A DNA stretch of 64,000 nt from an uncultured Gemmatimonadaceae bacterium (GCA_963781585.1 CAWAGQ010000013.1:448001-512000); one strand, 5' to 3'. Positions 138 to 61,989 are shown, numbered from the stretch's first letter. A program made the numbers and translations. The notes: generated by a model from the letters alone, not told the origin.

Positions 138-3100
138 ATGAATCGGCCGCGGTCACCGATGCGCATCGTGAGCCTGGCTGCCACGTTAGGCATGCTGTCG
201 TCGGGCGCGCGTGAGGTGTCCGGGCGGGGCCTCGGCGCCAGCCGGGTGCAGTCAGGCGCCACCGTCGACGTCACCATCCACGAGGGGACGTCGATGGCGG
301 TGGCCGCGTCGCCCGACGGACGCACCCTGGTCGTCGATCTCCAGGGGAGCCTGTACACACTGCCGGCTACCGGGGGCACGGCGACCCGCATCACCGACCT
401 GTTCAACGATGCGCGCCAGCCAGCCTGGTCGCCCGACGGACGGTGGATCGCCTTCCAGGGATATCGTGACGGCGGCTACGACGTCTGGGTCGTTGCCCCG
501 GACGGATCGGGACAGCACCAGTTGACGTGGGGTCCGTACGACGACCGTGAGCCCGTCTGGTCGCACGACGGCTCGCGCGTGGCCTTCTCGTCCGACCGCG
601 GTGGCAACTACGACATCTGGGTCCTGGACACGCGGACCGGCGAGATCCGCCAGGTCACCCGCGATCCGGCCGAAGACTACATGCCCACCTGGGCGCCGCA
701 CGACGACGAGATCGCGTTCATCTCCACCCGCGGAGGCGGTGCGGGTGTGTGGGCCGTGCGCCTGACCGACGAGTCCGAACGCCGACTCTCGGCGCCGGGT
801 GTGCGCGCCGACGCACCGTCGTGGGGCCCCGGCGGACAGATCGTCTTTCACGCCACCACCGCCGGTGCCAGTCAGTACGAGATCGACAGTACCGCGATCA
901 CCGGCGACGAGAACGTCTTCCCGTTCCGCGCCAGCTGGCTGTCGCCGACGGAATTCGTCTACGTCTCCGATGGAAAGATCCGGCGCCGCACGCTGGGTGT
1001 CGCCGCGGCGCAGACCATCGAGTTCTCGGCCACGCTGCAGGTCACCCGCGCCGGGTACCAGCACCGCAAGCGCGACTTCGACAGCCGCGCGCCGCGCCGG
1101 GTGGTGGGCATCAACACGCCGGCCATCTCGCCCGACGGCAGGCAGGTGGCGTTCACCGCACTCCACGATCTTTACGTGATGCCGGTAGGCGGCACGCCGG
1201 TGAACCTCACCAACGACCGCTTTCTCGACGCCGATCCGGCATGGTCGCCCGACGGCTCCCGGCTGGCGTGGTCCACCGATCGCGGCGGCCAGCTGCAGGA
1301 CCTCTGGATTCGCGACATGAAGACCGGCCGGGAGCGCCGCCTCACGAGTCTCCCGACTTCGGCACTGAAAGCGGCGTGGTCGCGCGACGGCAAACGCATT
1401 GCGTTCAGCGACGTGGACGCCATGTGGCGGCGCGCGACCGTGTCGGTGGTGGACGTGGCCTCCGGCAGGGTGACCCGGTTGCACGACGCCCTCTTCGCGC
1501 CGGGGACGGCGACCTGGTCGCCGAACGACCGGCGGGTGGCGATGACGTCGTTGATCCCGTTCTCGACCCGGTTCCGTGAGGGGACCAATCAGATCCTCAC
1601 CATGAACCCTGACAGCGCCGGCGACGAGCAGTGGTTCACGCCGGTGCCGAATCTGTCGATCGATTCGCGGGTGGGCGCCGGACCGGCGTGGTCTCCCGAC
1701 GGCACGAAGATGGCCATCGTGTACCAGGGCCTCCTCTCCGTGATCCCCGTGTCGTCCGCCGGCGAGCCGCTCGGCCCTCCCCGGCGCCTGACGAGTGAGA
1801 TGGCGTACGCGCCGACCTGGACCGGGGACTCGAAGCACATCCTGTACCAGTCGCTCGACCGGCTGCGGTTGGTGGACGTCGAGACCGGGCGGATTGCCGA
1901 CGTCCCGGTCGATCTCACCTACTCGGTGGACGTCCCCTCCGACCAATACGTGGTGCACGCCGGACGGCTGGTGGACGGCAAGAGCCCCACCGCGCGTTCC
2001 AACGTGGACATCGTCATCGCGGGGAATCGCATCCGCAGCGTCGCGCCCCATGGCGCGGCGGCTCACGCCGGCATGCGGGTCGTGGACGCGTCGAACTACA
2101 CGGTGATGCCGGGACTGGTCGAATACCACTCGCACCTGCAGCCGGACCTGGGCGAGGCCGGACTGCGCGCCTGGCTCGCGTTCGGCATCACCACCGTGCG
2201 CAGTCCGGGCGGCATGCCGTACGAGGCCGCCGAGTTTCGGGAGGCCAGTGACGCCGGCAGGCAGTGGGGACCGAGGGTCTTTTCCACGGGCTATCTGCTC
2301 GAATGGCAGCGCGTCTACTATCCCATGGCGGTGCCGGTCTCCAGTGTGGCGCAGCTCGAGATGGAGTTGCAGCGCGAGAAGGTGCTGCAGCTCGACCTCA
2401 TCAAGAGCTACGTCCGGATGCCCGATCTGCAGCAGCGACGGATCGTCGAATTCGCGCACAGCATCGGCGTTCCGACCTCGAGCCACGAGATCTACCCGGC
2501 GGCCTTCGACGGCAGTGACGGCACCGAGCACATCACGGGCACGAGCCGCCGCGGCTATTCGCCCAAGATCGCCACCTTGCAACGCAGCTACGACGACATC
2601 GCCCAGCTGTGGGGGGCAGCCCGGATGACCGTCTGTCCCACGCTCGCACTGGGCGGGGCGACGCTGCGTGCAATCGTGGCCGCCGACTCCACGCTCCGGA
2701 CCGATCCGCGGATGCGGCTCTACGCCGTCTGGAATCGCGCGTCGGTGACGGGGGAGACCGGGGGCGGGCGCGGCGAGGGCGGCTTCGGCGGCGTCGCGGG
2801 ACGAGGAGGCCGGGGACGCGGACAGGGGGGTGCGGCCGGCGCGGCGGGGCGATCAGGTGGAGGAGGAGCGCGAGGAACGGGACGTGGCAGTGCGTCCGAT
2901 TTCGACGGCCCGGGCGACCTCATCATGCGGGCGATGCGGGCCGGCACGCGCATCGTCGCCGGTACCGATACGCCCGATGCACTGAATCTGCACGCCGAGA
3001 TCGCGGCCTATGTCGCGGCGGGCATGACGCCGTTCCAGGCGCTGCAGACCGCCACGGTGAATCCCGCGGCGGCGCTGAACCTCGATGCCGGGAGCATCGA

Positions 3101-3236
3101 AGCGGGAACGCTGGCCGACCTGGTCGTGGTCGACGGCAACCCGCTGGTGGACATCAACGCCACCCGCCGGGTGAAGCAGGTAATCGTCAACGGGCGCCTG
3201 TACGACCTCGCCGAACTCCTTCGGGGGTCACGTTAG
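138..3236 (+). CDS. Secreted amidohydrolase-family protein with N-terminal PD40/TolB-like beta-propeller repeats
   Basis: Repeated 'PAWSPDG' motifs, then 'VMPGLVEYHSH', 'AGTD' and 'GSIEAGTLADLVVVDGNPL'. ATG 138 has GAGGAG 7 nt upstream. Confidence 0.85.
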   Translation: MNRPRSPMRIVSLAATLGMLSSGAREVSGRGLGASRVQSGATVDVTIHEGTSMAVAASPDGRTLVVDLQGSLYTLPATGGTATRITDLFNDARQPAWSPDGRWIAFQGYRDGGYDVWVVAPDGSGQHQLTWGPYDDREPVWSHDGSRVAFSSDRGGNYDIWVLDTRTGEIRQVTRDPAEDYMPTWAPHDDEIAFISTRGGGAGVWAVRLTDESERRLSAPGVRADAPSWGPGGQIVFHATTAGASQYEIDSTAITGDENVFPFRASWLSPTEFVYVSDGKIRRRTLGVAAAQTIEFSATLQVTRAGYQHRKRDFDSRAPRRVVGINTPAISPDGRQVAFTALHDLYVMPVGGTPVNLTNDRFLDADPAWSPDGSRLAWSTDRGGQLQDLWIRDMKTGRERRLTSLPTSALKAAWSRDGKRIAFSDVDAMWRRATVSVVDVASGRVTRLHDALFAPGTATWSPNDRRVAMTSLIPFSTRFREGTNQILTMNPDSAGDEQWFTPVPNLSIDSRVGAGPAWSPDGTKMAIVYQGLLSVIPVSSAGEPLGPPRRLTSEMAYAPTWTGDSKHILYQSLDRLRLVDVETGRIADVPVDLTYSVDVPSDQYVVHAGRLVDGKSPTARSNVDIVIAGNRIRSVAPHGAAAHAGMRVVDASNYTVMPGLVEYHSHLQPDLGEAGLRAWLAFGITTVRSPGGMPYEAAEFREASDAGRQWGPRVFSTGYLLEWQRVYYPMAVPVSSVAQLEMELQREKVLQLDLIKSYVRMPDLQQRRIVEFAHSIGVPTSSHEIYPAAFDGSDGTEHITGTSRRGYSPKIATLQRSYDDIAQLWGAARMTVCPTLALGGATLRAIVAADSTLRTDPRMRLYAVWNRASVTGETGGGRGEGGFGGVAGRGGRGRGQGGAAGAAGRSGGGGARGTGRGSASDFDGPGDLIMRAMRAGTRIVAGTDTPDALNLHAEIAAYVAAGMTPFQALQTATVNPAAALNLDAGSIEAGTLADLVVVDGNPLVDINATRRVKQVIVNGRLYDLAELLRGSR

Positions 3237-3401
3237 GCTGCCGGGCGGACCTCGTGTCCAATCGCGATGCGGCGGGCGGGTGCGAGGAGTTTGCGGACCA
3301 GATCGAGCGTCTCCGTCACCTGTCCAGGCTGCCGGGTTGGACGCCAGAGGCGGGAAAAGGATTGGCCGTCCGTCCGCTGGACGCGCGACCATCGCCGCGG
3401 T

Positions 3402-4469: not shown

Positions 4470-4486
4470 CGCCGTCTGGACTCCTC

Positions 4487-6388
4487 TCAGGACTCCGTGG
4501 TGTTGATGACGACCGTGTCGTCGCCGAATATGAAGCTTCCGCACTCGTGGCATCGATCGAGGGTACGATCCGCCCCCGCAAAACAGCGCCGGTCGTCAGG
4601 CGCCAGCCGCATCACCTTCCGCAGGAAGCGGCAGTCGCAGTCACCGCTGGGCTCGTAGACCGCGTCCAGGTACGACCCGGCGTCTTCCAGCACATTGCGC
4701 ACCCGGACCTTGAGCGACGGCGTGAGCTCCTGCTCGTCGATCGAGAGCTCCTTGCTGATCACCGCGAAGGCCTGGATGCGCTCGTACTTCACGGGATGCT
4801 CCCGATTGAAGGCGAGGATCGTCGCCCGCAACGAGTCCCGCACGACGCGCTCGGCGCGCGCCCGGTCGTCGCCGAACTCTTCGCCGATCCGGAAGAAGTC
4901 CGGGAAGATCAGGGCCGCGAGAAAGTCCCTTCCGCCGCCGGTCACGATGACGTGGCGGATGTACGAGTTCATCCCGGCAAGCCGGTTCTCGATGCCCGTC
5001 GGCACCACCTTCTCCGCGTTCAGCATCTTGAACACGCGATCCTTCCGCGCGACCAGCTTGAGTCCGGCGCCTGCCAGCTCGCCCAGGTCGCCGGTGTGAA
5101 ACCATCCGTCGCCGGGCAGCGCCGCGGCGGTTGCCGCCGGATTCCGGAAGTAACCGCGCATGACGTTAGGCCCCTGCACCAGGATCTCGCCGTCTTCGGC
5201 AATCCGGACCCGTACCCCCGGGATGGGATACCCGACCATGCCCGGAACCGTACGGGGCTCGCCGAGATCCGTGAGCGTGCAGCACGGCGATGTCTCCGTG
5301 AGCCCCCAGCCCTCGAGTACCGGGATGCGCCGCCCGGCGAAGAAGCCGGAGACATTTGCCGGTAGCGGCGCGGCGGCCGTGAAAACGAAACGCAACCCGG
5401 GGTGGAAGATCCGCGCCTCCTGCTCGGGGTGCGCCTGCGCGTACGCAACCAGTTGCTGGTAGACCTTCGGAACGCTGAAGTAGATCGTGGGCCGCACCTC
5501 GAGCCACTGATCCAGCAGCCGCTCGAAGTTCTTGCCGAGCGACTGGTCGATGTGCAGTGCGGCGCCGCTGTACAGCGCACCGTATTTCTCGAAGATGCCG
5601 CCGAAACTGTGGTGCCAGGGGAGGTACGACAGGAACCGGTCGTCGGGAGTGACCGACCAGATGGCGGACAGGGCACGCTGCTGCGAGAGAATGTTGTCGT
5701 GGGTGAGCAGCACGCCCTTGAGCGGACCGCTGGTGCCTGACGTGTACATCATCAGGCTCGCCGTCGCCGGGTCGACGTTGGCGGCGTCGTCGAGGAAAGC
5801 GGTCAGGCGCTGCGGATCGTGTTCCGGCACTGCGAAGTCATGAAGGACGGCTCCGAACGTGGTGGGCTCCGAGCGCCTTCCGCGGTGCCGGCCCGCACCG
5901 GTACCTGACACCACGCCGTCGAACACGACGACCGCGCGCACGTGGTCGGGCACGCCGATACGAAGGAGATGATCGGGAGTCGCGACGATGAGCACCGTTG
6001 GTTCGGCATGCTCCACTAGTGCGCGCGCCTGCTCGGCCGGATAGCCGGTAAAGATGGGGACGTAGATCGCGCCAAGGCACATCGTCGCCATCTCCGCCAC
6101 CAGCATCTCGCCTCGATTTGGCGACAGCAGCACCACCCGGTCGCCCATCCGCACCCCGGACGAGGCGAGAAACGTGCCGAACGCGGCAACGTCCCGTGCG
6201 AACTGATGCCAGGTCGTCGCGCGGAACGCACCGTCGTGTCGTTCGGCGAACGCGGTTCGCCCGTCCAGTGCTGCCACGTTGCGCGCCAGCATCGCACCGA
6301 CGGATTCCGGTTCGCCCAGCGGGGCGAGGCGCGAGAAGATCACGTCGCCCTCGCGCGCGGCGGCCCGGGAGGAGCCTCCGTCAGTCAT
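4487..6388 (-). CDS. AMP-forming acyl-CoA synthetase (long-chain ligase-like) with Cys-rich C-terminal extension
   Basis: 'YTSGTSG.LKG', 'EGWGLTET', 'GWFHTGDLG', 'ELTPSLK' motifs; start approximate (6388/6394/6406). Confidence 0.8.
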   Translation of the reverse strand: MTDGGSSRAAAREGDVIFSRLAPLGEPESVGAMLARNVAALDGRTAFAERHDGAFRATTWHQFARDVAAFGTFLASSGVRMGDRVVLLSPNRGEMLVAEMATMCLGAIYVPIFTGYPAEQARALVEHAEPTVLIVATPDHLLRIGVPDHVRAVVVFDGVVSGTGAGRHRGRRSEPTTFGAVLHDFAVPEHDPQRLTAFLDDAANVDPATASLMMYTSGTSGPLKGVLLTHDNILSQQRALSAIWSVTPDDRFLSYLPWHHSFGGIFEKYGALYSGAALHIDQSLGKNFERLLDQWLEVRPTIYFSVPKVYQQLVAYAQAHPEQEARIFHPGLRFVFTAAAPLPANVSGFFAGRRIPVLEGWGLTETSPCCTLTDLGEPRTVPGMVGYPIPGVRVRIAEDGEILVQGPNVMRGYFRNPAATAAALPGDGWFHTGDLGELAGAGLKLVARKDRVFKMLNAEKVVPTGIENRLAGMNSYIRHVIVTGGGRDFLAALIFPDFFRIGEEFGDDRARAERVVRDSLRATILAFNREHPVKYERIQAFAVISKELSIDEQELTPSLKVRVRNVLEDAGSYLDAVYEPSGDCDCRFLRKVMRLAPDDRRCFAGADRTLDRCHECGSFIFGDDTVVINTTES

Positions 6389-11687: not shown

Positions 11688-12461
11688 TCACCGGTTCTTC
11701 CACGCCGGGCGGCGCTTTTCGGTGAACGACGCGATGCCCTCGCGCACGTCCTCGGTCGCCATCAGTTCATCCAGGAAAACGCGTTCGGCCTCGCGCCGCG
11801 CTACCTCGAACGGCCGACCCTGCAGCCGTCGCGCGAGCCGGACGTTCATGCGCATGACGAGCGGGCTCGCGCGCCGCAGGTCGTCAAGCAGGGCGTCGAG
11901 GACGGCGGTCAGGTCCCCGGACGGCGCGACGCGCGAGACGAGCCCCATTGCCTGCATCTCGGCTGCCGAATACGTCCGGCCCGTGCACGTGACCTCGAGT
12001 GCGCGCGCGAGGCCGATTCGGGACGCCAGCCAGGTGACGCCGACCGGCGCGAAGAACCCCAGCCGGATCTCCGGCTGACCAAACGTGGCGCGGTCGCTGG
12101 CCACCAGCACGTCGGCCATGGCGGCCAGCTCGAATCCAGCGCCTAACGCCGCACCATCCACGACCATCACGAGAGGCAGCTCGCTCGCCCCCAGGGTGCC
12201 GAAGAGCGCGCTGAACGCGGCGATCATGCCCGGCGCCTGCCCGGGAGCGTGCTCGCCCACGTCGGCGCCGGCCGAAAAGGCGCGGGCCTCCGAGCTGAGC
12301 GTGATCGCCTTGAGCGTGCGATCGGCCAGGGCGCGCTCGAGGGCGTCGGTCAGGGCCCCCATCATCGCCGCGGTGAGGATGTTGAGCGGTGGTGAGTCCA
12401 GCGTCAGGTGCGCGACGTCCTCACGGACCTCGTACCGTACCAGACTTGCGCGGTCGGTCAT
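11688..12461 (-). CDS. dch: Cyclohexa-1,5-diene-1-carbonyl-CoA hydratase (crotonase fold)
   Basis: 'PPLNIL', 'FSAGADVGEH', 'GAGFEL', 'FGQPEIRLG'; bcr context. Alternative GTG start at 12470. Confidence 0.72.
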   Translation of the reverse strand: MTDRASLVRYEVREDVAHLTLDSPPLNILTAAMMGALTDALERALADRTLKAITLSSEARAFSAGADVGEHAPGQAPGMIAAFSALFGTLGASELPLVMVVDGAALGAGFELAAMADVLVASDRATFGQPEIRLGFFAPVGVTWLASRIGLARALEVTCTGRTYSAAEMQAMGLVSRVAPSGDLTAVLDALLDDLRRASPLVMRMNVRLARRLQGRPFEVARREAERVFLDELMATEDVREGIASFTEKRRPAWKNR

Positions 12462-12477
12462 CGTCGTCACGGTCTCC

Positions 12478-15549: not shown

Positions 15550-16206
15550 TCATTGCCCGCGCCCGTCGTGGCGCAGCCCGTTGAGCACGAGGTCCAGCAT
15601 TTCCTCGCCGACCTGTTCCACCGGTCCATGGCGGGCCGGATCGTACCACATGAAGATCCAGTTCAGCATACCGAAGATGAACAGCGTGGCGTGGCGGCTC
15701 TCCCGCGATGCCCCGGCAGCGTTAGGCGGACCGTCCTTCACCTCCGCGACCACGTCCGTCATCAGCCGGTAGTAGCGCCGGCGCAGCGACTGGATGGTGT
15801 GGTAGGGCTCGCCCGTCAGCGATTCCAGCTCGTACGTGCACGCCTTGAGCTCGTTGCGATGGTGCGAGAAGAACCCGAGGTGTCCGATCAGCAGCCGTCG
15901 GAACCGCTCCTCCGGCGTGCCGGGCTGCTCGGCGACTTCCTCCTGCGCCTGCAGCAGTGAGCCGAAGGTCCGGTACTGGAGCTGATAGAGCAGGTCCTCC
16001 TTGCTGGCGAAATAATGGTACAGGCCCGCCAGGCTCACCCCCACCGCCTGGCTCACGTCGCGCATCGAGGTCGCCTCGAATCCCTTCTCCGCGATCAGCG
16101 CCGCCGCCCGGGCCAGCAGGTGATCGACCTTCTGCCGGGTCGTCGCCCGTGGGCGCTGGTGGCGTGCCGTGGCGGCGGGCATGGCGGGATCACGCGGGAT
16201 CGTCAT
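15550..16206 (-). CDS. TetR-family regulator, PaaR/KstR2-like (acyl-CoA sensing subgroup)
   Basis: HTH 'GFEATSMRDV...LYHYFASKEDLL'; C-terminal 'IFGMLNWIFMWY'; ATGA overlap with the upstream gene. Confidence 0.85.
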   Translation of the reverse strand: MTIPRDPAMPAATARHQRPRATTRQKVDHLLARAAALIAEKGFEATSMRDVSQAVGVSLAGLYHYFASKEDLLYQLQYRTFGSLLQAQEEVAEQPGTPEERFRRLLIGHLGFFSHHRNELKACTYELESLTGEPYHTIQSLRRRYYRLMTDVVAEVKDGPPNAAGASRESRHATLFIFGMLNWIFMWYDPARHGPVEQVGEEMLDLVLNGLRHDGRGQ

Positions 16207-19061: not shown

Positions 19062-19936
19062 CGCTGCGTCTCGCGTGCCCGCGCGACCGCCTGGGCGAGC
19101 GCACGACGGGTGAGCACATTCACCAGCTCGCGACGGAAACCGGCCGATCCCCGGATATCGGTCACCGGCAACGCCTCCTCGGCGCATAGCGCGCCCGCGA
19201 GCGCAAACAGCTCGTCCGAGACGGACTCCCCCTCCAGGACCTTCATCGCGCGCACCGCCAGGAGGGGCACCGGCGCCGCCGCACCTAACGCTATCCGGGC
19301 GCCCGAGATGCTCGCGCCGTCCAGCACCACGCGCGCCGCGACCGCCGCGACCGCAAGCGCTGCGCCGCGCCGGCGGGCGAAGCGCTGGTAACTCGCCCCC
19401 GAACGCGCCGGTTGCGCGGGAACGATTACCTCCACGAGCACTTCACCAGGACCGAGCACCGTGCGACGTGGACCGATGAAGAAGTGCTCGGCGTCGATCT
19501 CGCGCCCACCATCGGGGCTCATCGTCCGGACGCGCGCCTCGCCGACGATCGCCACGGGGGGCGTGTCCGCGCACGGCACGGCCCGGCAGAAATTCCCGCC
19601 GATCGTCGCCAGGCTCCGGATCTGCGGGCTGCCGAGCACGCGCGCCGCTTCGGCCAGCGCCGGAAACCAGGAGCCAACAAGCGGCGACCTCGCCACCTCG
19701 GCGATGGACGTCAGGGCGCCGATGCGGAGCAGCCCGTCCGCCGCGCGAATGCCGCGCAACTCGGCGACGCCGTCGAGCGCGATCAGGTGCCGGGCCGACT
19801 CCCGCTCTCTATGGTAGTCCGGCAACAGTTCGGTCCCGCCGGCCAGGAATGCGCCATCGGGTCCCAAACGCCGACCGAGCGCGCAGGCTTCGGCCAGGCT
19901 GTTGGGGCGATAATAGGCGAGCGCCCCGTTGCTCAT
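19058..19936 (-). CDS. hcrB: FAD-binding subunit of xanthine oxidase-family enzyme (HcrB/HbaD-like, no [4Fe-4S] insert)
   Basis: 'LAGGTEL', 'QIRSLATIGGN', 'DIRGSA.FR'; ATG 19936 overlaps the GNAT stop. Confidence 0.72.
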   Translation of the reverse strand: MSNGALAYYRPNSLAEACALGRRLGPDGAFLAGGTELLPDYHRERESARHLIALDGVAELRGIRAADGLLRIGALTSIAEVARSPLVGSWFPALAEAARVLGSPQIRSLATIGGNFCRAVPCADTPPVAIVGEARVRTMSPDGGREIDAEHFFIGPRRTVLGPGEVLVEVIVPAQPARSGASYQRFARRRGAALAVAAVAARVVLDGASISGARIALGAAAPVPLLAVRAMKVLEGESVSDELFALAGALCAEEALPVTDIRGSAGFRRELVNVLTRRALAQAVARARETQR

Positions 19937-44536: not shown

Positions 44537-45412
44537 TTGTCCTCACGATTGCAGAACGCCGCCGGCTTCGTGACGATCGCGTGGCCGGCCAGCGCCTGCG
44601 CGAACGCGCTCGCGGTTTCGAACCGATCGGCCGACAGTTTCTTCAGCGCGGTCATCACCGCTGCCGCCACGTTCGGCGGCACCGCCCTTTCGCAGCTCGC
44701 TCACCGGCCGAGGCGTGTCTGCGATAATTCGCATCATCGTCTGCTGCGCCGACCCGCCCTCGTGTGGCGGCACACCCGCCAGCATTTCGTACAGCACTGA
44801 CGCGAGCGAGTAGACGTCGCTGCGCGCCGTGATGTCTTTCTCCGCTGTCGCCTGCTCGGGGCTCATGTAGTGCGGCGTCCCTAACGAGAGCCCGGTCTCG
44901 GTCATCCGCCCGCCCGCCGCCGCACTCACCGCCAGCGCAATGCCAAAGTCCATCACCATCGCCCGCCCGTCGTGCAGCAGGATGTTCTTCGGCTTGATGT
45001 CTCGGTGGATCACCCCGTGCCGGTGCTCGTAGTCCAGCGCGTCCGCCACCTCGGTCGTGATCTTTACGGCCTCGTCGATCCCGAACTGCGTCTCCCGGTT
45101 CAGCTTCTCCCGGATCGTCTCCCCTTCGATGAAGGGCATGACGTAGTAGAGGAACCGGCCCGCCTCGCCCGAGTCGAACAGCGGGAGGATGTGCGGATGG
45201 CTCAGCGCCGCGGTGGTCTTGATCTCCTGCACGAAGCGCTCGGCGCCTAACACCGCCGCAAGCTCGGGCTTCAGGACCTTGATGGCGACCTTCCGGTCGT
45301 GCTTGAGGTCCGCGGCGAGATACACGGTCGCCATGCCGCCCGCGCCCAGCTCCCGCTCGATGCGATATCGGTCCGCGAGGGCCGCGGACAGACGGTCGGT
45401 GGGATCAGCCAT
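44533..45412 (-). pseudogene. Truncated Ser/Thr kinase (kinase domain only), +1 frameshift at ~44686
   Basis: 'LADRYRIERELG', 'HRDIKPKN' (E->K), 'DFG', 'YMSPE'. Deleting one C at 44685-44687 restores 'RKAVPPNVAAAV..ALKKL.ADRF' and ends at a TGA overlapping the OPT ATG. No sensor domain. Confidence 0.65.
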
Positions 45413-45530: not shown

Positions 45531-47769
45531 ATGATCCCATTACCTTGGACCTTCCGAACTGCCGGTGTCGTCTTCGTGCTTGGCAGCGTTCTCGCGGCCA
45601 TGCACCAAGCGCCGACGGCGCGCCCCGTGGACCTCGCCGCCGCGCGTGCCCTGTTAACACGCGTGGTGCCTGGCAACGCCCACGCGTTCGAGGTCGCGGC
45701 GATTCCCGACAGCGCCGGCCGCGACGTGTTCGAGGTGGAGAGCCGTGGCTCGAGCGTGATCCTCCGCGGTTCGTCCGGTGTGGCCATCGCCTCGGCGCTC
45801 AACTGGTATCTGGAGCATGTGGCCGGCGTGAACGCCTCGCTCCCACTGAAACCGATCACGCTTCCCACCTCTCTTCCACGTGTGCCGGCCAAAGTGCGGG
45901 TCGCGACGCCGTACAATGTCCGCTACTTCTTCAACTACTGCACCTTTTCCTACTCCATGGCATGGTGGCGCTGGAGCGACTGGCAGTCGATGATCGACTG
46001 GATGGCGCTCAAGGGGATCAACGCGCCGCTCGCCGTCACCGGCCAGGAAGCCGTGTGGCGGCTCGTCCTCGAGGACTTCGGATTCAGCCGAAAACAGGTC
46101 GCTGACTTCCTGGTGGGGCCGGCCTATCTGCCGTGGGGCTGGATGGCCAACATCGACGGCCTGGGCGGCCCGCTCCCGGACAGCTGGATCGACAGCCACG
46201 TCGAGCTGGAGCGTCAGATTCTCGCGCGTGAGCGCTCGCTCGGCATGACGCCGGTGCTGCAGGGCTTCACCGGCCACGTGCCGCAGTCGATCACGCAGGT
46301 CATTCCCGGTGCACGCATCCACCAGACCGGCGACTGGTCGGCGGGATTTTCCGGCACCTGGTTCCTCGACCCGCACGATTCGCTCTTCCAGCGCATGGGA
46401 CGGCGGTTCATCGAGCGGCAGACGGAATTGTTCGGCACCGACCACCTCTACGCGGCCGATCCGTTCAACGAGATCAATCCGCCGTCGAATGACTCGACTT
46501 TCCTGGCCGGGATGGGCGGGGCGATCTACGACGCCATGCGTTCGGCCGATTCCAGCGCGACCTGGGTGATCCAGGCGTGGTTCCTCGTGTACGGCGCAAA
46601 GTTCTGGCAGGATCCGCAGGCGGAGGCGCTGCTCGGCGCGGTGCCTGACGAGCGAATGCTGGTGCTGGACCTCTGGGGTGACCGATCGCCGGGATGGAAG
46701 GCGCGCCGCGGTTTCTACGGCAAGCCGTGGATCTGGAACGTGCTGTACAACTTCGGTGGCAAGGTCAGCGTCAACGGCGACCTGCCACGGATCGCCGCCA
46801 ATCTCGACAGCGCGATCCGGAGCCCGGACAAGGGACGCATGGAAGGTCTCGGGATGACGATGGAGGGGCTGGGCACCAATCCGATCGTCCCCGATTTCGT
46901 GATGGACCAGGTGTGGCGCGACAGCGTCCCCGATGTGGCGGCGTGGACGCACGAATACATCGCGCGCCGCTACGGGCGGTTCAATGCGTCCGCGTGGAAC
47001 GCCTGGCAGCTATTGCTCGCCACCGCGTTCCGCTCGCCGGCCCAGACCGGGAACTTCCTGGCCGAGCGGCCGCAGTTCTATATGAAGGGGCGCGCGTACC
47101 GGACCGAGCCGATCGCCCCTTACGACCACCGGATCCTGGACCGCGCCCTGGATTCGCTGCTCGCGGCCGCGCGGGTGCTCGGGGCCAGCGACGCCTATCG
47201 CTACGACGTGGTGAATCTGACACGGCAGGTGCTCGGGCCAGCTGGGACTGCCGCTCGTCAATCGCGTGCAGGAGGCGTACGAGCGGAAGGACCGGTCGGC
47301 ACTGATGGCGGCGGAGGGACAGATCAGGTCACTGCTCCGCGATATCGACACGCTGGTGGGGACGCGGCCGGAGTTCCTGCTGGGACGCTGGATTGCAGAC
47401 GCGAAGCGCTGGGGAACGACGGACGCGGAGCGGCGCCTCTACGAGTGGAATGCCCGCAACATCATCACCCTGTGGGGCACCAAGTGCACCGAAGGTCAGA
47501 ATGACGACCTGAATCTCTACGCGTTCAAGGAGTGGGAGGGGATGTTCACCTCGTACTTCCTGCCGCGGTGGGAGGCGTTCTTCAAGCAGCTGAACGCGTC
47601 GCTCGAGACCGGCGCGCCCTTCGATCGCGCGCCGTTCGCCGCGGCGTCGTGCGAATGGGAGCAGCGGTGGTCACGTGATACGAGCACGTTTCGTACCGAG
47701 CCAGTGGGCGACGCTGTGGAGACGGCGCGGGGGCTCCTGCACACGTGGCGCGCCGAGCTTCCGCGTTAG
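45531..47769 (+). CDS. Alpha-N-acetylglucosaminidase (GH89), split by a +1 frameshift at ~47236
   Basis: 'YFFNYCTFSYS', 'IDWMALKGIN', 'DPFNE', 'MEG', 'NARNIITLWG'. Removing one G at 47235-47237 joins both ORFs (..VLGQLGLPLVNRVQEAY..). Confidence 0.88.
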
Positions 47770-47790
47770 GCGTGCACGCCAACGCCCGCG

Positions 47791-52700: not shown

Positions 52701-54326
52701 TCAGCGCTCCATGAGCGGCGGTGTCTCGCGGAAGCTGCGCGTCCGGCTGAGCACGACGAACAGCGTCGCGAGCCCCAGATACGCCACCGCCCAGTGGTAT
52801 GGCAGACGCGACGATGTCTCCCATGGCAGATAGATGTTTGCGGCCGGCATCACCGAGTGAATGAACCCGAAGAAGGACAGCGTGGCGCAGGCGACGAGAA
52901 TGGCCGCCGCTCGCGCGATCTGGCGGTCGATCAGGAAGGCGAGCGCCCCGCCCCAGAGCAGCGCGGTGAGAATGAACCCGTTGGCGAGCATGACCACTAC
53001 CCCACAGGTCTGAATGAAATCGGGGTTGGTGATCCCGCTTGCGGCCATGGCCCCCGCCGGGTCGAGCGCCGCCGACATCAGGGCGCCGTTGTGCACCTGG
53101 GAGAGGAAGATCGAGACCAGGTACGCCACCGACGGCATCACGGCCAGGGTGACGGCCGCGACGTGACGCCGGGGTGACGCCAGGAAACTCTGACCGGTGA
53201 TCTCGAGGCCGATGAAGAAGAGCACCGGGGCGAGGGCGGGTCGGGGCAGGGCGCCGGCCAGAAAGGCGATGTATCCGAAGATCCCGCCGAGGCCAATCAC
53301 GAGGCCGGTCGCGAGCGTGTAGGCGGCCCGGCCGCCCATGTCCTTGTACGCCGGGTGGCCGATGTACGGCGTGGTCTGGCTGATGCCGCCGCACACCCCG
53401 GCCAGCAACGTCGCCACCGCCTCGGTGAGGAGGATGTCGCGGGTGCGATAGTCGTCTCCGGCCACGCGCGCGCTTTCCGTGACGTCGATACCGCCCACGA
53501 TCGTCAGCACCGCAAACGGCAGCGCCAGCGGCAGATACTGGGTCACCGCGAGATGGAATCCCGAGAGAAAGCCGAGCGTGGGCATGGGAAACGCGAGCGG
53601 GAACGTTGCCGCCGGAATCGACACCGGGTGGGTGGACAGGCCCGCCACCCCCATGCCGTAGTACAACAGGGCCCCCACCACTACCGCGGCCAGGACCTGC
53701 GGGGCGCGGAACGGCAGCCTGATCTTCGCCACCAGCGCGTAGAGAATGATGCCTAACGCGATCATCCCCACCACCGGTTCGCTGTAGATTTCGGTCAGCT
53801 GCAGCGTGCCCAGGAGCGCGATCCCCACGCCACCGATCGAACCCAGCAGACCGGCGCGCGGAATCCAGCGTCGCAGGCGTTCCCCCACGAACGCCATGCC
53901 AAGCTTGAAGAGGCCGATCACGACCATCGTCGCCATGCCCACCTGCCAGGCGAGCACCGCGGCGTCCGCCTCGGCCATCCGGGTCTTCGCCGCGACGAAC
54001 GCCGGGCCGAGCACCGCGAACGCCATGCCGATGGTGGACGGCGTGTCGGTCCCCAGCGGCATGGCGGTGACATCGTCGCGGCCGGTACGTCTGGCCAGCC
54101 GGAACGCCAGCCAGGTGTAGACCAGGTCGCCGAACATCACGCCCAGCGCGGTGCCGGGAAACATCCGCCGGTACACCAGATCGGCCGGGAAGCCGAACCC
54201 GGCCACCAGAATCCCGGCGAGGATCGCCAGGTTGACGATGTTGTCGAGGATGAGCCCGAAGAAGGCGTTGACGTCGCCTAACGTGGCCCATCGATACACG
54301 GGCCGGGGAGCGGCGGTGGCGGTCAT
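52701..54326 (-). CDS. NCS2/AzgA-like nucleobase permease
   Basis: '[11 protein letters not shown]', 'TAMPLG.DTPS', 'ESA..AGD.Y', '[10 protein letters not shown]'; many TM segments. Confidence 0.8.
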
Positions 54327-54374
54327 CGCGCGCCGGCGGCCCTCGGCGACCTCGCGATCCGGCCCTTCACCGCA

Positions 54375-55055: not shown

Positions 55056-55353
55056 GCGCGTTTCCTCCTTACGGTGATTCCAGACTGCTTGTGTTCCACG
55101 ATGCGGCACCCAGCGTCCTGCAAACCTCGGACCCGCCGGCGGTCTCCGGAGGAGGCCCGCCACCGCCGGACCGCGTGGCGAGTGCCAAAGAACGACCTCA
55201 CGGTCTCCGCGAACGCGTTGTGCCTCTCGTCGCCTAGAAATGACGTGGGGCGGACTGGAACCGCAAGAGTGGACAAGCGCCGCGATCGCAGCGAACCAGG
55301 GACTGGCACCGACCAGGCGGCTGCCCGCTGATCGCTGAAACCTGTCCCTTCAC

Positions 55354-56211
55354 CTAACGCGGGCGGTCGCTCCCTTCCGCCGTCGGCTGATCGAAGATGT
55401 CGCGCATGACGGCTTCGAGTGCGGTGCGGAGCTCGGCGGCGGTGGCCCCCAGATGAAAACCCGACACCGCCACCGGACGCAGCAGTCCGGCAAGCGTCTG
55501 GGGTCGTTCTGCGTCGGGCATGCCCGGAGGCTTCTGCGCCGCAACCCGCGTGCCCCGCGCGCCTTCGGTCACGACCACCCCCAACCGCTCGAGCTCTCCG
55601 TAGGCCCGTGCCACCGTCCCGGGCGCGATGTCGAGGTCGTCGGCCAGGCGGCGCACCGTCGGCAATCGATCACCCGCATTCAACTGGCCCGTCGCCACGC
55701 CCTCCTGGATCCGCGCCACGATCTGTTCGTAGATCGAGCGATCCGAGGTGTCGTCCACCTGGATCTGAAACGGCGCGGGCAGGTCACCGCTCAACGCGGA
55801 CCGCGCGCGCTCCGCCGTCACCCCGAGGGCGTTCAACACCTGCGCGGCGACCCCCTTCTCTTCGTCGAGCAGTCCGAGCAACAGATGCTCGGTGCCAACG
55901 TAGTTGTCGTTGCGTTCGCGCGCGGCAGACATCGCAAGCTCGAGGACTTTCTTCGCACGCGATGTATAGGGAAGATCAGGGCCGGTCGTCATTGTCCGGC
56001 CCTCCTTCACCGCTGCCAGAACCTCGCGACGGATCACGTCGGGCGTAGTCCCCAGCCGGGCGAGCAACCTGGTCGTCTCGTCGGACGGTTCGCGAGTCAA
56101 TCCGAGCAGGAGGTGCTCGGTGCCGACGTACTCGTGGCGCTGGCGCTTCGCCTCAGCTCGCGCATGGACCAGCGCGACACGAACCCCCTCGGTGAAGTTG
56201 TAGGCGTTCAT
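55354..56211 (-). CDS. Double Clp-N (ClpC N-terminal) domain fused to GntR-type HTH
   Basis: Two 'YVGTEHLLLGL' repeats and 'LPYTSRAKKVLE'; then 'IYEQI', 'GDRLPTVRRLA', 'TVARAY.ELE..G', 'GTRV'. Confidence 0.85.
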   Translation of the reverse strand: MNAYNFTEGVRVALVHARAEAKRQRHEYVGTEHLLLGLTREPSDETTRLLARLGTTPDVIRREVLAAVKEGRTMTTGPDLPYTSRAKKVLELAMSAARERNDNYVGTEHLLLGLLDEEKGVAAQVLNALGVTAERARSALSGDLPAPFQIQVDDTSDRSIYEQIVARIQEGVATGQLNAGDRLPTVRRLADDLDIAPGTVARAYGELERLGVVVTEGARGTRVAAQKPPGMPDAERPQTLAGLLRPVAVSGFHLGATAAELRTALEAVMRDIFDQPTAEGSDRPR

Positions 56212-56310
56212 CGTGCCAGTGACGCGTCTCCCCCAGCTGTAGCGCAGCATGACTGCCTCCGACGAAGTGCCTTCAGGACACTGGCTTGCAGCTTGTACCA
56301 GTCTCGCTGA

Positions 56311-56482: not shown

Positions 56483-56830
56483 TCACTTCTTCTTGCGACG
56501 CGCCCGGGGCTTCTTCTTCGCCGGCTCCTCGTTAGGCTCGAGCTGGATGTTGATGCTGCTGATCTCGTCCTTGAAGTGGTCGGCCAGCCGGCCGATGAAC
56601 GCCGACAGCAGTTGCCACTCCTTCGACGGTGGACGGCACCGCACCGTGACCAGCAGCGGACCGGGAGTCTGTTCCAGCCGCAGTTCGCCCGGATACCGCT
56701 TGTGCTGGAGACGCACACCGCCGCGCACCTGCGTCACCTCAAACGAGCGGATGCGTCCCTCGGCGATCGCCGAGCGGAGCTCCGTCTGGAGAGTGGGACC
56801 GTGACGACCGACGATCTGCACGTGGACCAT
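56483..56830 (-). CDS. Hypothetical protein with basic C-terminal tail
   Basis: GGAGG RBS, coherent 115-aa ORF ending 'KKKPRARRKKK'. Confidence 0.65.
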   Translation of the reverse strand: MVHVQIVGRHGPTLQTELRSAIAEGRIRSFEVTQVRGGVRLQHKRYPGELRLEQTPGPLLVTVRCRPPSKEWQLLSAFIGRLADHFKDEISSINIQLEPNEEPAKKKPRARRKKK

Positions 56831-56965
56831 GACGCCCTCCGGAAGGTCGACGATGCGGCTGCCGCGAAGACGCTGCACGCGCCCGTCCGGCGCGCGACCA
56901 TAACGTTAGGCGTCCGGCGCCCCGCGCGCCATGCCCGATTTGCGCGGCGCGGGCGCGGGCGTGAA

Positions 56966-57802: not shown

Positions 57803-57805
57803 CGC

Positions 57806-59044
57806 TCATTGGTCATCCGGGGAGCCCGGCAACAGGGGTTCGAGATCGGGCGTGGTGGCCCCATTCTCCGTGCAGAGCGCGAACTTCGTCTCCCCGGCGT
57901 GGTACATGCACACGCCGGCGTGCTCCCCTCGCTTGTCGAGGACGAAGAAGCGGATGTTGAAGTTCGGATTTCCCCTGGCATTGAGCAGGCGCGCTTCGAT
58001 CGTGTTCGCCTTGATCCGCTTCAACGCATCCATGCCGGCGTCCTTCGGCGACATTCCCCGTCGCATGTTCTCGACGATGAGATACGAGCTGAGGTTGTAG
58101 AGATTCGCCTCGCCGCGTCCGGTGGAACCGGCCGCTCCCACGTCGTTGTCCACGTACAGGCCCGCGCCCAGGATGGGCGAGTCTCCCACCCGACCGGGAA
58201 TCTTCCAGGCCAGTCCGCTGGTGGTGGTCGTGCCGCAGATGTCGCCGGTGGGACTGATGCCGTTGCAGTTGATCGTCCCCCAGAAGCTCCCTTCCGGAAT
58301 CAGGCCGTCCCGCACCATCGACCTGCCCGCCGCCAGCGCCCGCTGCTCCCACGCCGCGTCGCGGACGCCCGACTCCGGCGTGCCTGGCCGTCCGGTCGGC
58401 GGCTTGGGGGGCTTTCGACCCGGTCCATTCGGGTCGAGCCAGTGTTCGGGGTCGATGCGGCGCCGCCACTCCAGCCACAGTTGTCGGGAACGCGCCGTGT
58501 TCAGGTCCGGCTCGATCGTGAACCCCATCTGGCGCGCGAAATCCTGCGCCCCCTGGCCCACCAGCAGATGGTGGTCGGTCATGTCCATGACCGCCTGGGC
58601 GACCAGCGACGGCGTCCGTACCCCTTCGATCGCCGCCACCGCCCCGGCCCGACGCCGGGGCCCGTGCATGCACGACGCGTCCAGCTGAATGACGCCGTCG
58701 GCGTTAGGCAGCGCGCCGTAGCCGATGCCGGTTTCCTCGGGATCGAGTTCCGGAATGTTGACGCCGGCAATCAGGGCGTCGAGCACATCCTTCCCTTCGG
58801 TGATGAGCCGGAAGGCGCGCTCGACCGCGTTCTCGGGACCGCCGTTCCTGAACTCGAAGCCACTGTAATCGGACACGACCACCGGCCGCACGGCACTTCG
58901 AAGGAACAGTGCCGGCGCTCCGAGGCGCCTGCTGGCGGCGGCCGGGTCGCTGGTGATGCGTTGGAGCGCGTCGACGGGCGATCCCGCCGCGCCGGCAGCG
59001 AGCCCGGCCGCGGCAAAACGGACGAAATCGCGGCGATCTGGCAT
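57806..59044 (-). CDS. N(4)-(beta-N-acetylglucosaminyl)-L-asparaginase (Ntn hydrolase), Tat-exported
   Basis: 'DRRDFV' Tat motif, 'GYGALPN', 'LDASCM', 'WGTI', 'TTSGLAWKIPGRVGDSPI'. Confidence 0.88.
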   Translation of the reverse strand: MPDRRDFVRFAAAGLAAGAAGSPVDALQRITSDPAAASRRLGAPALFLRSAVRPVVVSDYSGFEFRNGGPENAVERAFRLITEGKDVLDALIAGVNIPELDPEETGIGYGALPNADGVIQLDASCMHGPRRRAGAVAAIEGVRTPSLVAQAVMDMTDHHLLVGQGAQDFARQMGFTIEPDLNTARSRQLWLEWRRRIDPEHWLDPNGPGRKPPKPPTGRPGTPESGVRDAAWEQRALAAGRSMVRDGLIPEGSFWGTINCNGISPTGDICGTTTTSGLAWKIPGRVGDSPILGAGLYVDNDVGAAGSTGRGEANLYNLSSYLIVENMRRGMSPKDAGMDALKRIKANTIEARLLNARGNPNFNIRFFVLDKRGEHAGVCMYHAGETKFALCTENGATTPDLEPLLPGSPDDQ

Positions 59045-59259: not shown

Positions 59260-60033
59260 ATGCCGAAATATCCCGCCCTTGCACCGCTCACGATGTCGGT
59301 TCCCGCCGCTGACGGACTCGTGCTCCGCGGGTCGCTCACGTATCCGCACGGTCTCACCGGCGCGCGGTATCCCCTGGCCGTGCTCGCCCACCAGTATCCG
59401 TCGGCGCGCGAGAGCTACGCGCCGCTGGCCACCGACCTTCATGCGTTAGGCGTGGCGACGTTGTCGTTCGACCTGCGCGGTCACGGCGACTCGATCTGGA
59501 CACCGACCGGCGTGCGGGTGGTCGACACACCGGCCCTGCCCACGATGGAAGCCTTCGCCACGGCCTTCATGGCGAGCTTCGCCAAAGCCGGCTTTGCGCA
59601 CATCTCCGACGATATCGTGCGCGTATCGGCGTGGGGAATGACCCAGAATTACGTGGACCACGGTCGCGTGCTGCTGGTAGGATCGAGTGTGGGTGGCACC
59701 GGCGCCCTGCTGGCCGCCGCGAGTATCGGGAACGGGCTGCGTGGCGTGCTCACCTTCTGCGCGGCCGGCGCCCCGGCGCACGGATCCGATGCCGACCAGC
59801 GAATCCGGCGCAACTGCGAGCGCCTCACCGTGCCTGTCCTGCTGGCGTCGTCGGAGAATGATCCGTTCGATGGCGCGGCCAACGCGCGAGCGTGGAGCGA
59901 CAAGTTGTCCCACGTGCACGCCACCATCGTGAAGGGCGCGGATCACGGAATGGCCATCTACTACGCGGTTCGGAAGGAAGTCCAGGGCTTCGCGGCCCGC
60001 GCGCTGGGCATCAAGCGGCCGCGCGCGAAATAG
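59260..60033 (+). CDS. Alpha/beta hydrolase
   Basis: 'FDLRGHGDS', nucleophile 'GSSVG', Asp in 'SEND', His in 'DHG'. Confidence 0.82.
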   Translation: MPKYPALAPLTMSVPAADGLVLRGSLTYPHGLTGARYPLAVLAHQYPSARESYAPLATDLHALGVATLSFDLRGHGDSIWTPTGVRVVDTPALPTMEAFATAFMASFAKAGFAHISDDIVRVSAWGMTQNYVDHGRVLLVGSSVGGTGALLAAASIGNGLRGVLTFCAAGAPAHGSDADQRIRRNCERLTVPVLLASSENDPFDGAANARAWSDKLSHVHATIVKGADHGMAIYYAVRKEVQGFAARALGIKRPRAK

Positions 60034-60712: not shown

Positions 60713-61989
60713 TGGGCGCAGCCGGCGCCACGGTTGCGGCGGTTCCCTGGTATCGCACCATCACGCGGGCGCAGTGGCGGGCTCTGGTCGCGGCCAAGCT
60801 GGGGTGGATGCTGGACTCGATGGACTTCATGCTGTACGTGATGGCCGTCGGGCGGCTCAAGAGCTACTTCGGGTTCAGCGACGCCACGGCCGGATTGCTC
60901 GGCACCGTGACGCTGCTGACGTCGGCGGTAGGGGGAATTCTGTTCGGTCTGGTGGCCGACCGGATCGGGCGGGCCCGGGCGCTGATCGTGACCATCCTGA
61001 TCTTCTCCGTATGCTCGTTAGGTGCGGCCACCTCGCAGGCGGTCTGGCAACTGATGCTCTGGCGTACGGTCCTCGGGATCGGGATGGGCGGCGAATGGGC
61101 CTCGGGGGCGGTGCTGGTGAGCGAGACCTGGCCGGCGGAGCATCGCACCAAGGCGGTGAGCATCATGCAGTCGGGGTGGGCGCTGGGGTACATCCTTGCC
61201 GCCCTGATCGCCGCCCTGGTCCTCGACGTACTGCCGTTAGGCGATGCGGCGTGGCGATGGCTGTTCGTGGCAGGCGTGCTGCCGGCGCTGTTCACGCTCT
61301 GGATCCGTCGCCAGGTCGCCGAACCCGAGGCCTGGGTGCAGCGGCAATCCGGCAGGCGCCAGTCGGGCCGCCCGTTTGCGACGCTGTTCAGCCAGACGTT
61401 CCGGCGCCGGACGGTGCTCGCCACCCTGCTCTCGGCGTTCGTCCAGTTCGCGAACTGGGGGCTCTTCTTCTGGCTCCCGGGTTTTCTGGCCAGGCCCCTG
61501 GAACAGGGCGGCGCGGGGATGTCGATCATCCGCTCCACGGGCTGGATCATTCCGGTGCAGATCGGCGCCTACATCGGTTACAACTCGTTCGGCTTCATTT
61601 CCGACCGGCTCGGGCGCCGTCGCACGTTCATCGGCTATCTGGTCACGGCCGCGATCCTGGTGCCGCTCTACGGCCAGATGGCGCGGAGCCCGCTGGTGCT
61701 GATGGCGCTCGGCCCGCTGCTCGGCTTCGTCGGCTACGGCTACTTCAGCATGTTCGGATCGTTCCTGGCCGAGTTGTTCCCGACCGCGGTTCGCGCCACC
61801 GGCCAGGGACTCACCTACAACCTCGGACGCGGGCTGGGCGCGCTTGCGCCGTACACCATCGGCTACGTGGCCACCCTGCCTAACGTCGGGATCGGATCCG
61901 CGCTCGGCCTCACCTCGGCCTTCTTCCTGGCCGGTGCCCTGCTGAGCCTGGCCTTTCCGGACCGGAGCCGACAGCCTCTGGATGACTGA
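60712..61989 (+). CDS. MFS transporter (sialate/carboxylate symporter-like)
   Basis: 'GWMLDSMD', 'ADRIGR', 'GMGGEW', 'ELFPT.VRATGQG'. Confidence 0.88.
   Translation: MGAAGATVAAVPWYRTITRAQWRALVAAKLGWMLDSMDFMLYVMAVGRLKSYFGFSDATAGLLGTVTLLTSAVGGILFGLVADRIGRARALIVTILIFSVCSLGAATSQAVWQLMLWRTVLGIGMGGEWASGAVLVSETWPAEHRTKAVSIMQSGWALGYILAALIAALVLDVLPLGDAAWRWLFVAGVLPALFTLWIRRQVAEPEAWVQRQSGRRQSGRPFATLFSQTFRRRTVLATLLSAFVQFANWGLFFWLPGFLARPLEQGGAGMSIIRSTGWIIPVQIGAYIGYNSFGFISDRLGRRRTFIGYLVTAAILVPLYGQMARSPLVLMALGPLLGFVGYGYFSMFGSFLAELFPTAVRATGQGLTYNLGRGLGALAPYTIGYVATLPNVGIGSALGLTSAFFLAGALLSLAFPDRSRQPLDD

Follow-up and report, generated by a model that had tools for sequence, protein, structure and literature searches.

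We examined a window of 64,000 nucleotides from the genome of an uncultured Gemmatimonadaceae bacterium (GCA_963781585.1, contig CAWAGQ010000013.1, positions 448001-512000) and found that an 8-mer, CGTTAGGC, is strongly over-represented both in this window and in the whole genome. The word is a DNA-level signal kept against codon bias, and it is placed in several reading frames, on both strands and in intergenic DNA. It coincides with the core of predicted integron attC sites of the same order, and it is also hyper-abundant in patches of an unrelated phylum. Based on these observations, we tentatively suggest that CGTTAGGC acts as a tag resembling the DNA uptake sequences, possibly favouring cassette-bearing DNA.

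The window corresponds to C13:448001-512000 of the assembly, here called G000, which comprises 5.72 Mb in 17 contigs at 67% GC. The first-pass annotation of the window had listed 22 positions of the heptamer CGTTAGG/CCTAACG against roughly 7 expected. Exact matching recovered all of them, 12 on the plus strand and 10 on the minus strand, together with the single CCTAAC at 45246, and the excess was larger than had been claimed: dinucleotide-preserving shuffles gave a mean of 2.44 heptamers (sd 1.69, maximum 7), and none of 100 shuffles reached 22. When the whole genome was counted, 1,706 heptamers were present, 1,442 of them as CGTTAGGC. Since position +7 is C in 85% of the heptamers, the unit is the 8-mer, one base longer than the enriched heptamer that had been proposed; the 22 heptamers of the window comprise 17 CGTTAGGC, 4 CGTTAGGT and 1 CGTTAGGG. 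The genome thus carries about one copy per 4,000 bases, compared with 44 and 51 copies expected in total under order-2 and order-3 Markov models, respectively. The absence of strand bias noted in the window holds genome-wide (724 forward and 718 reverse copies), as does the remark that most TTAG tetramers come from the motif, GTTAGG supplying 1,916 of 3,056. The 24 top-ranked 8-mers of G000 by observed/expected ratio are all CGTTAGGC, shifted CGTTAGGC or one-off variants of it.

The flanks show a weak preference, for any base but C at -1 and for a purine at +8, which is alike in intergenic, sense and antisense copies. These flanks widen the word to D-CGTTAGGC-R, and CGTTAGGT, TGTTAGGC and CGTCAGGC are weaker accepted forms. 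When forms of the word in G000 genes were compared with synonymous-codon shuffles, CGTTAGGT was 11-fold, TGTTAGGC 3.7-fold, CGTTATGC 2.1-fold and CGTCAGGC 3-fold above the shuffle (the last with 1,198 genic copies, 3.2- to 7.0-fold in four of five open frames and 1.3-fold in the fifth), and most other one-off forms showed no enrichment. Part of the apparent depletion of one-off forms is an artefact of the shuffle, in which the TTA codons of the words themselves are spread over other sites. CGTCAGGC, which differs from CGTTAGGC at position 4 alone, is a second over-represented word of G000, with 1,519 copies on both strands. A repeat element, a miniature inverted-repeat transposable element or an RNA gene was also considered and is ruled out, since no conserved sequence surrounds the dispersed copies and no Rfam family matched in the window; the cassette arrays described below gave one tRNA only.

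To place the copies relative to genes we used a frame-aware codon model, which called 4,515 genes covering 85% of G000. Sense copies are read as xCG-TTA-GGC (767) or xxC-GTT-AGG-C (33) and antisense copies as xxG-CCT-AAC-G (276) or xGC-CTA-ACG (66); 99 copies lie across gene ends, as CGT-TAG or GCC-TAA stops, one lies across a gene start, and 200 are intergenic. In 30 synonymous-codon shuffles within genes, the 800 sense copies compare with 21 +/- 5 and the 342 antisense copies with 28 +/- 5, so that the genic total of 1,142 exceeds the shuffled total of about 47-49 by about 24-fold; in the four open frames the excess is 59-, 5.6-, 17.6- and 10.9-fold. The word contains 767 of the 1,377 TTA codons of G000 and takes up 15.7% of [SPTA]-L-G sites and, in antisense, 32% of x-P-N-[VADEG] sites. 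Because the antisense sites are the fuller, the sense excess reflects opportunity and not strand. CGT-TAG is found in 91 of 1,361 TAG-ending genes and GCC-TAA in 51 of 346 TAA-ending genes. A signal at the RNA or translational level is ruled out by the enrichment of antisense, stop-overlapping and intergenic copies and by the most-used compatible site being antisense. These results indicate that the enrichment persists under both dinucleotide and synonymous-codon shuffles and that the first-pass annotation was right to read the motif as a DNA-level signal opposed to codon bias. The proteins accommodate the word with rare codons and with residue changes. Apart from this, 30% of G000 genes (1,361 of 4,515) end in TAG, a proportion that seems high for a genome of 67% GC, and the word explains only 91 of them.

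With respect to replication, bins of positive GC skew contain 455 forward and 423 reverse copies, and bins of negative skew contain 264 and 288. The orientation of the word follows gene orientation (Spearman 0.43) more closely than skew (0.25), and skew itself correlates with gene orientation. Replication polarity of the kind shown by Chi or by the FtsK-orienting polar sequences (KOPS) is ruled out by the skew-bin counts and by this tracking of genes; the initial argument against both, made from the lack of polarity in the window, holds for the whole genome. The copies are spaced more evenly than chance, with 8 gaps below 100 bp versus 36 expected, 68 versus 172 below 500 bp and 211 versus 322 below 1 kb, and very long gaps are nonetheless slightly above expectation. 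Positions along genes are uniform, and copies per gene are near Poisson. The longest word-free stretches are located at C4:866742-905435 (alaS-recX-recA-ftsK-accBC-lptD-tatC), at C8:283862-322251 (arg genes, hisA, murB and gidA, with a GC-skew switch) and, on the homologous contig, at C5:276646-324259. The C5 and C8 stretches have a GC content of 0.62-0.64, lower than that of the genome, and lie at the origin-like skew switch; this switch and the lower GC near gidA suggest a replication origin.

The two contigs C5 and C8 allowed us to compare the word between close homologues. They are about 440 kb each, have the same GC-skew switch near gidA and are syntenic, with 88.9% identity over 329 kb (range 82-96%); two related genomes or replicons thus seem to be present in the assembly, for which the contamination figure is 7.19%. 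Of the words in the alignment, 67 occupy the same position in both contigs, C5 alone has 13 and C8 alone has 16, giving a retention of 84% and 81% versus 43% for all aligned 8-mers, a comparison that is unmatched for codon phase. The partner of an unshared word is CGTTAGGT in 7 of 29 cases. Identity at 1-10 bp from the shared words is 0.884, compared with 0.894 at randomly chosen places, and at greater distances its excess is 0.9 points at most. With flank identity near the random level, it is therefore the 8-mer itself that is kept and not the surrounding tract.

A link to integrons came from word-poor relatives, in which the copies, few in number, are grouped 500-700 bp apart and share an orientation. 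Each clustered copy closes a conserved site of about 90-105 nt, GCCTAACA...GCGCCTGAAGCTGC...GCAGCTTAGGCGC..CCGTTAGGC, between small open reading frames (ORFs). The bottom strand of these sites is predicted to fold into two stems, with an unpaired spacer between them and single bulges in the second (z -4.4 to -5.1), and the arrays adjoin integron-integrase matches, for example at G027:C80 and G025:C26. Judged from sequence and predicted fold, the clustered sites are integron attC sites and CGTTAGGC is their conserved R' end, an assignment that is new here and includes the sites of G000 itself. In G000, an intI gene at C7:185858-186859 scores 434 bits against a cut-off of 265 bits, and beside it, with intI upstream and in the same orientation, are four attC-like sites ending in CGTTAGGC (C7:170000-187000); a second attC-like cluster with no integrase lies at C13:310-317 kb. 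About a dozen of the 1,442 copies belong to these two arrays, and the remaining ~99% are lone 8-mers, mostly in genes. At the dispersed copies no attC-like arms or flank information were found, a crude fold scan of G000 gave 5 hairpin-flanked copies, and no attC model of Rfam matched. The integron core-site consensus is GTTRRRY, which GTTAGGC inside CGTTAGGC fits. An 8-mer holds a given 7-mer on either strand with a probability of about 2e-4, so chance is an unlikely source of the match to the attC core. The word also matches the degenerate attC primers TCSGCTKGARCGAMTTGTTAGVC and GCSGCTKANCTCVRRCGTTAGSC, one of which ends in CGTTAGSC, in the primer description of PMC2669170, and an attI1 oligonucleotide given in PMC2811028 contains AGTTAGGCA. 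Beside the arrays we also observed a two-gene element in three copies (C7:172353-174475, C7:182952-185074 and C13:307783-309905), composed of a 302-aa tyrosine recombinase and a 390-aa ORF, in or beside the cassette arrays; it is also present in G001, and the word occurs 3 nt past the recombinase stop.

The motif, which had been predicted to occur elsewhere, is found throughout G000 and in some of its relatives. In the 40 nearest genomes the count ranges from 4 to 6,360: G009 has 6,360 copies in 5.1 Mb, G024 has 953, G001 (same genus) 915 and G005 605, most genomes have fewer than 50, and a reversed control word occurs about 50-450 times. In a 301-genome sample of the phylum, word-rich genomes are confined to patches of three families in the order of the window, Gemmatimonadales, and none was seen in the other orders or classes sampled. 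Among the rich genomes is G305, which is complete at 7.5 Mb and has 4,469 copies; about 380 genomes of both phyla were counted in all. These tallies include four genomes flagged as unpublished (G008, G086, G204 and G125), all of which are word-poor. With nine of eleven loci named as Gemmatimonadaceae or Gemmatimonadales, G000 itself shows 65-73% nucleotide similarity, a level that agrees with membership of the phylum but falls short of a formal placement.

A codon alignment of rpoB revealed how the word is placed in a conserved gene. At conserved x-L-G sites the word-rich genomes have xCG-TTA-GGC and the word-poor G294 has CTC, and word sites of the rich genomes are also made by D>N, F>L and D>P replacements. 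G241 uses six of its eight [SPTA]-L-G sites and G294 none of four; their proteins are 92% identical, and third positions of shared codons are 71% identical. Two word sites are common to G000, G009 and G241, and with third positions saturated to this degree, such sharing can come from convergence. Where a word site exists, the ancestral codon is CTC or CTG, from which the word requires two changes, and the words arise by point substitution without indels. In G001, rpoB (G001:C8:72190-76838, L160) is broken up among several reading frames and interrupted by in-frame TAG stops, most likely through an assembly error in this 64%-complete genome. Four G294 loci (L141, L142, L145 and L146) contain (CTGCTTT)n heptamer arrays in inverted pairs about 50-130 bp apart.

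Identical CGTTAGGC is hyper-abundant in patches of Chthoniobacterales, which belong to the unrelated phylum Verrucomicrobiota. This was found by a scan that took a single genome for each species and looked for two copies of the word within 30 bp, and that returned at least 125 loci; the word of soil Verrucomicrobia, TCGTTAGGC, was checked independently by the scan and by whole-genome counts. Among the matches listed, loci of Gemmatimonadaceae and Chthoniobacterales metagenome-assembled genomes (MAGs) have copies dispersed over both strands at 6-15 per 4 kb, and T stands at -1 in 103 of 118 copies at the Chthoniobacterales loci. Six of 81 whole Chthoniobacterales genomes are rich, with 5,186, 2,512, 2,140, 948, 472 and 352 copies. 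Five further genomes hit by the scan, from Acidobacteriota, Terriglobia, Cyclobacteriaceae, Pirellulales and an alphaproteobacterial MAG, are not word-rich, having low whole-genome counts and local same-orientation arrays. In one soil DNA sequencing run, as contigs, 6% of the sampled words were found. The scan also gave two kinds of local array. The Acidobacteriota MAG G408 has, at C4:0.99-1.38 Mb, dozens of word pairs exactly 25 bp apart in one-orientation runs, which are possibly an attC type with a doubled box. Tandem (CGTTAGG)n arrays with a period of 7 are spread over numerous unrelated taxa, among them Thioalkalivibrio (11 units at the end of a contig), Yersinia, Desulfacinum and Bacteroidetes (loci L001, L008, L010, L043, L048, L051/52, L075, L078, L082, L087, L094 and L116), and may be ordinary microsatellites caught by the search pattern.

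The same two-copy scan of IMG/VR gave 119 loci, mostly isolated pairs or tandem arrays, and five high-GC contigs with dispersed copies. Counted over whole records, a 45.6-kb phage contig rated 100% complete has 35 copies, a 41-kb contig has 43, a 49-kb provirus 18, a 41.7-kb contig 16 and a 13.5-kb contig 6. The copies are inside portal, prohead protease/major head, terminase and tape-measure genes, and their frames are as in the host. The complete 45.6-kb phage and the provirus encode tyrosine integrases, and such elements may therefore share the fate of the host chromosome; the phage data do not separate a drive through uptake from selection inside the cell.

We searched for candidate readers of the word in a panel of 41 genomes, composed of G000 and its nearest relatives. 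An integron integrase is over the cut-off in 26 of 41 genomes and does not track richness: none is over the cut-off in the rich G005, G015 and G024, the richest genome G009 has it as frameshifted fragments only, and many poor genomes have an intact intI. RecC was found in one of 41 genomes and, at the threshold used, not in G000; PDDEXK_1, the nuclease domain of AddAB/RecB type, was found in 14 of 41 and in none of the eight richest, G000 included. Neither tracks richness, nor do Vsr (5 of 41) and C5-methylase (5 of 41), the latter being present among rich genomes only in G000, plus a fragment in G015. G000 has an adjacent C5-methylase and Vsr (a Dcm-Vsr pair) at C7:477177-478451, and similar pairs occur in the poor G007 and G019. 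ComEC is present in 40 of 41 genomes including G000 (C4:402177), and a full-length PilQ-like secretin is likewise present in 40 of 41, with scores of 225-275 bits that are all below the 284-bit cut-off (268 bits in G000, C12:20249). G000 also has nine pilin-like ORFs.

To our knowledge, uptake sequences are established in two proteobacterial families only, as the DNA uptake sequence (DUS) of Neisseriaceae, with its receptor ComP, and the uptake signal sequence (USS) of Pasteurellaceae. Our word resembles them in being a short non-palindromic word with hundreds to thousands of copies on both strands, mostly in genes, spaced more evenly than chance and common to related genomes, and type IV pilus and ComEC genes are present in G000. 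It also shares with them the use of least-cost frames and the changes to the proteome, which are described for USS and DUS in the relevant part of PMC2817400. It differs from them in being identical across Gemmatimonadota and Verrucomicrobiota instead of forming clade-specific dialects, in its patchiness within a genus, in coinciding with the attC core, and in that its largest word-free stretches are core genes. Compared with integron sites, CGTTAGGC contains GTTAGGC, as in the R' box of attC and the R box of attI, and with its leading C it is the 3' end of attC. Unlike them, about 99% of its copies have no R'', L'' or L' arms or hairpin and are not beside intI, they do not follow integrase presence, and other GTTRRRY variants are unenriched. 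Chi (read by RecBCD or AddAB), KOPS and architecture-imparting octamers are likewise over-represented 8-mers at about one per few kb; the G000 word differs in lacking polarity, in the failure to find RecC and PDDEXK_1 in G000 and in a much higher enrichment. The cyanobacterial highly iterated palindrome HIP1 is also a hyper-abundant octamer in coding DNA, from which CGTTAGGC differs in being non-palindromic and in showing no methylase association that we could find. The NTS/dRS3 repeats read by Ssn single-strand nucleases are, in the portion of PMC11893778 concerned with them, 28-nt hairpins clustered around genes; they are similar as a genome-wide repeat tied to transformation, in their case with a dedicated protein reader, and different in that CGTTAGGC is a bare 8-mer in genes with no flanking structure. 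A search of the literature on the 8-mer, and on uptake sequences in connection with these phyla or with integrons, based partly on top-ranked matches only, returned nothing on this word or on such uptake sequences; among the matches listed, the Ssn/NTS system came nearest.

Based on the observed anatomy, enrichment, conservation, distribution and attC-core identity of the word, we suggest, tentatively and at somewhat less than an even chance, that it is a DNA-uptake-sequence-like tag. CGTTAGGC would be a genome-wide recognition word read as DNA. Point substitutions would put it into ordinary genes in any tolerant frame, and selection or molecular drive would then hold it in place. We infer an uptake process in which word-bearing fragments would be preferred by a putative receptor for DNA that forms part of the type IV pilus/ComEC transformation machinery; biased uptake followed by homologous recombination would spread the word and maintain it at about one per few kb. 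The same preference would favour DNA with integron gene cassettes, since the word is the R' end of attC, and this may explain why two soil phyla have one word. Of the options raised by the first-pass annotation, the anatomy fits that of an uptake sequence best, and the evidence separates the options only in part; its core interpretation stands, and it missed the 8-mer unit, the identity with attC R' and the second phylum.

Several observations weigh against the uptake reading. ComEC and PilQ-like genes are equally present in poor relatives and do not explain who has the word, and two of the nine pilin-like proteins, compared across rich and poor genomes and one Chthoniobacterales genome, showed no pattern; no receptor emerged from these comparisons. 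One genus includes two genomes with 3,896 and 4,141 copies and a third with 66, which needs fast gain or loss, and one identical word is found in two phyla with no clade dialects. No alternative dispersed word appeared in 200 kb of the poor G002 or 130 kb of the poor G294, in a test that recovers CGTTAGGC at once in 200 kb of G000; on the other side, taken with the clade-patchy distribution, this would suit a reader that some genomes have and others lack. Core regions, not foreign islands, make up the two 38-kb word-free stretches, no word-centred recombination tracts were seen between C5 and C8, and the host-like word density in phages is not predicted by a pure uptake drive. A variant of the reading, which we regard as improbable, is that two soil lineages each gained an uptake preference for the attC end and so fish for cassettes and for each other's DNA, their own copies being a by-product. 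If true, the word would be an uptake tag used across phyla, linking natural transformation with the pool of integron cassettes.

Among the rival explanations, it is unlikely in our judgement that the integron integrase or another tyrosine recombinase reads the word as a double-stranded R-box, attI- or attG-like, with the copies serving cassette recombination, not uptake, as landing pads, as binding sites or as decoys. The order's integrons, including the four attC-like sites beside intI in G000, have the word as their attC R' box, integrases are common in the order, and both CGTTAGGT, which fits GTTRRRY, and TGTTAGGC, which is the R'' complement, are enriched; however, GTTAAGC, GTTAGAC and GTTGGGC, which are also GTTRRRY, are unenriched, and the enriched CGTCAGGC breaks GTT. 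The dispersed copies have no attC-like flanks, richness does not follow integrase presence (G005, G015, G024 and G009, as above), thousands of intragenic insertion sites ought to be harmful, and recombination leaves indel-free copies made by point substitution unexplained. The comparison with published sites is similarly divided: the attI1 oligonucleotide holds AGTTAGGCA (in the oligonucleotide data of PMC2811028) and the purine at +8 is similar to the CRGM motif that lies on the right side of attG hotspots, but IntI1 genomic insertion requires GWT alone (both as described in bioRxiv 10.1101/2022.09.11.507474). A binding site for an abundant sequence-specific chromosome protein (nucleoid, segregation or replication-linked), cis-selected on every resident replicon, would account for sites that are orientation-neutral, evenly spread, conserved and present in resident phages, and for the dip of the word around the origin-like region near gidA on both homologous contigs. 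It is distinctly unlikely, because its identity in two phyla and its patchiness within a genus would need repeated transfer of a core factor, and no candidate gene was found; no nucleoid or segregation protein is known to us whose 8-bp sites number in the thousands and are imposed on coding sequence at such cost.

A Chi-like or 'self' mark that regulates nuclease or defence at DNA ends, for which the chromosome and its resident phages would be selected to carry regular copies, appears quite improbable to us. The density of one per 4 kb is near that of E. coli Chi, the shortage of close pairs is as expected if each segment needs only one copy, phages carry the word at host-like density in structural genes, and the site is conserved while its flanks are not. 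On the other hand, there is no replication polarity beyond the gene-orientation effect, neither RecC (one of 41, not G000) nor PDDEXK_1 (14 of 41, none of the eight richest) is distributed as needed, the word-rich phages examined are temperate or proviral, and an enrichment of 24- to 60-fold with rare codons and residue changes is far above Chi levels known to us. Very unlikely, finally, is a methylation- or repair-linked drive, HIP1-like or very-short-patch-like, that turns near-words into the word, an option that had been raised at the outset and gains no support here. Most one-off neighbours are depleted, but those with C>T at position 1 or 8 are enriched, which could be deamination of methylated cytosine, and the Dcm-Vsr pair of G000 would suit such a drive; however, the depletion of TTA neighbours is partly the shuffle artefact, Vsr and C5-methylase (five of 41 each) do not follow richness, with only G000 and the methylase fragment of G015 among rich genomes, the word is non-palindromic, and the ancestral CTC or CTG codons are two changes from it.

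The window illustrates these placements in ordinary metabolic, transport and kinase genes. In its first part, copies of CGTTAGGC on the plus strand are at 184..191, in sense as xCG-TTA-GGC in gene 114-3236 (PD40/amidohydrolase), and at 3231..3238, across the CGT-TAG stop of the same gene; at 5164..5171 and 15720..15727, antisense as xxG-CCT-AAC-G in gene 4487-6439 (AMP-binding) and in the TetR gene 15550-16206; and at 19032..19039, antisense as xGC-CTA-ACG in the Mo-dehydrogenase gene 16203-19061. Minus-strand copies of CGTTAGGC in sense are at 12141..12148 (xCG-TTA-GGC, enoyl-CoA hydratase gene 11688-12470), 27579..27586 (MacB/FtsX-type permease gene 27237-29864), 33668..33675 (gene 32576-33916 for a transporter of the major facilitator superfamily, MFS), and 53751..53758 and 54276..54283 (both in gene 52701-54326). 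The remaining copies of CGTTAGGC on the plus strand are intergenic at 47764..47771 (by the gene calls) and 56904..56911, antisense at 56530..56537 (gene 56483-56878) and 58702..58709 (asparaginase-family gene 57806-59044), and in sense at 59444..59451 (hydrolase gene 59260-60033) and 61235..61242 (MFS gene 60709-61989); the last of these genes also has a minus-strand copy in antisense at 61878..61885. The one-off variant CGTTAGGT is in sense on the minus strand at 19283..19290 (gene 19058-19951) and 21503..21510 (gene 21248-22516) and on the plus strand at 61016..61023 (MFS gene 60709-61989), and on the minus strand it lies across the stop of gene 55354-56250 at 55352..55359; the one-off variant CGTTAGGG is in sense on the minus strand at 44879..44886 (kinase gene 44543-45412). 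Three heptamers had been described as CGT-TAG gene stops, and those at 3231 and 55353 are so, whereas the one at 47764 ends a mechanical ORF only.

If the word is an uptake sequence, sequence-selective DNA exchange would extend to soil phyla that are dominant and for the most part uncultured. That the word is identical with the attC core provides a concrete, testable reason for two phyla to share it, and also suggests a link between transformation and the cassette pool. If the word is not an uptake sequence, some protein still reads the 8-mer strongly enough to impose rare codons and residue changes on thousands of genes, rpoB included.

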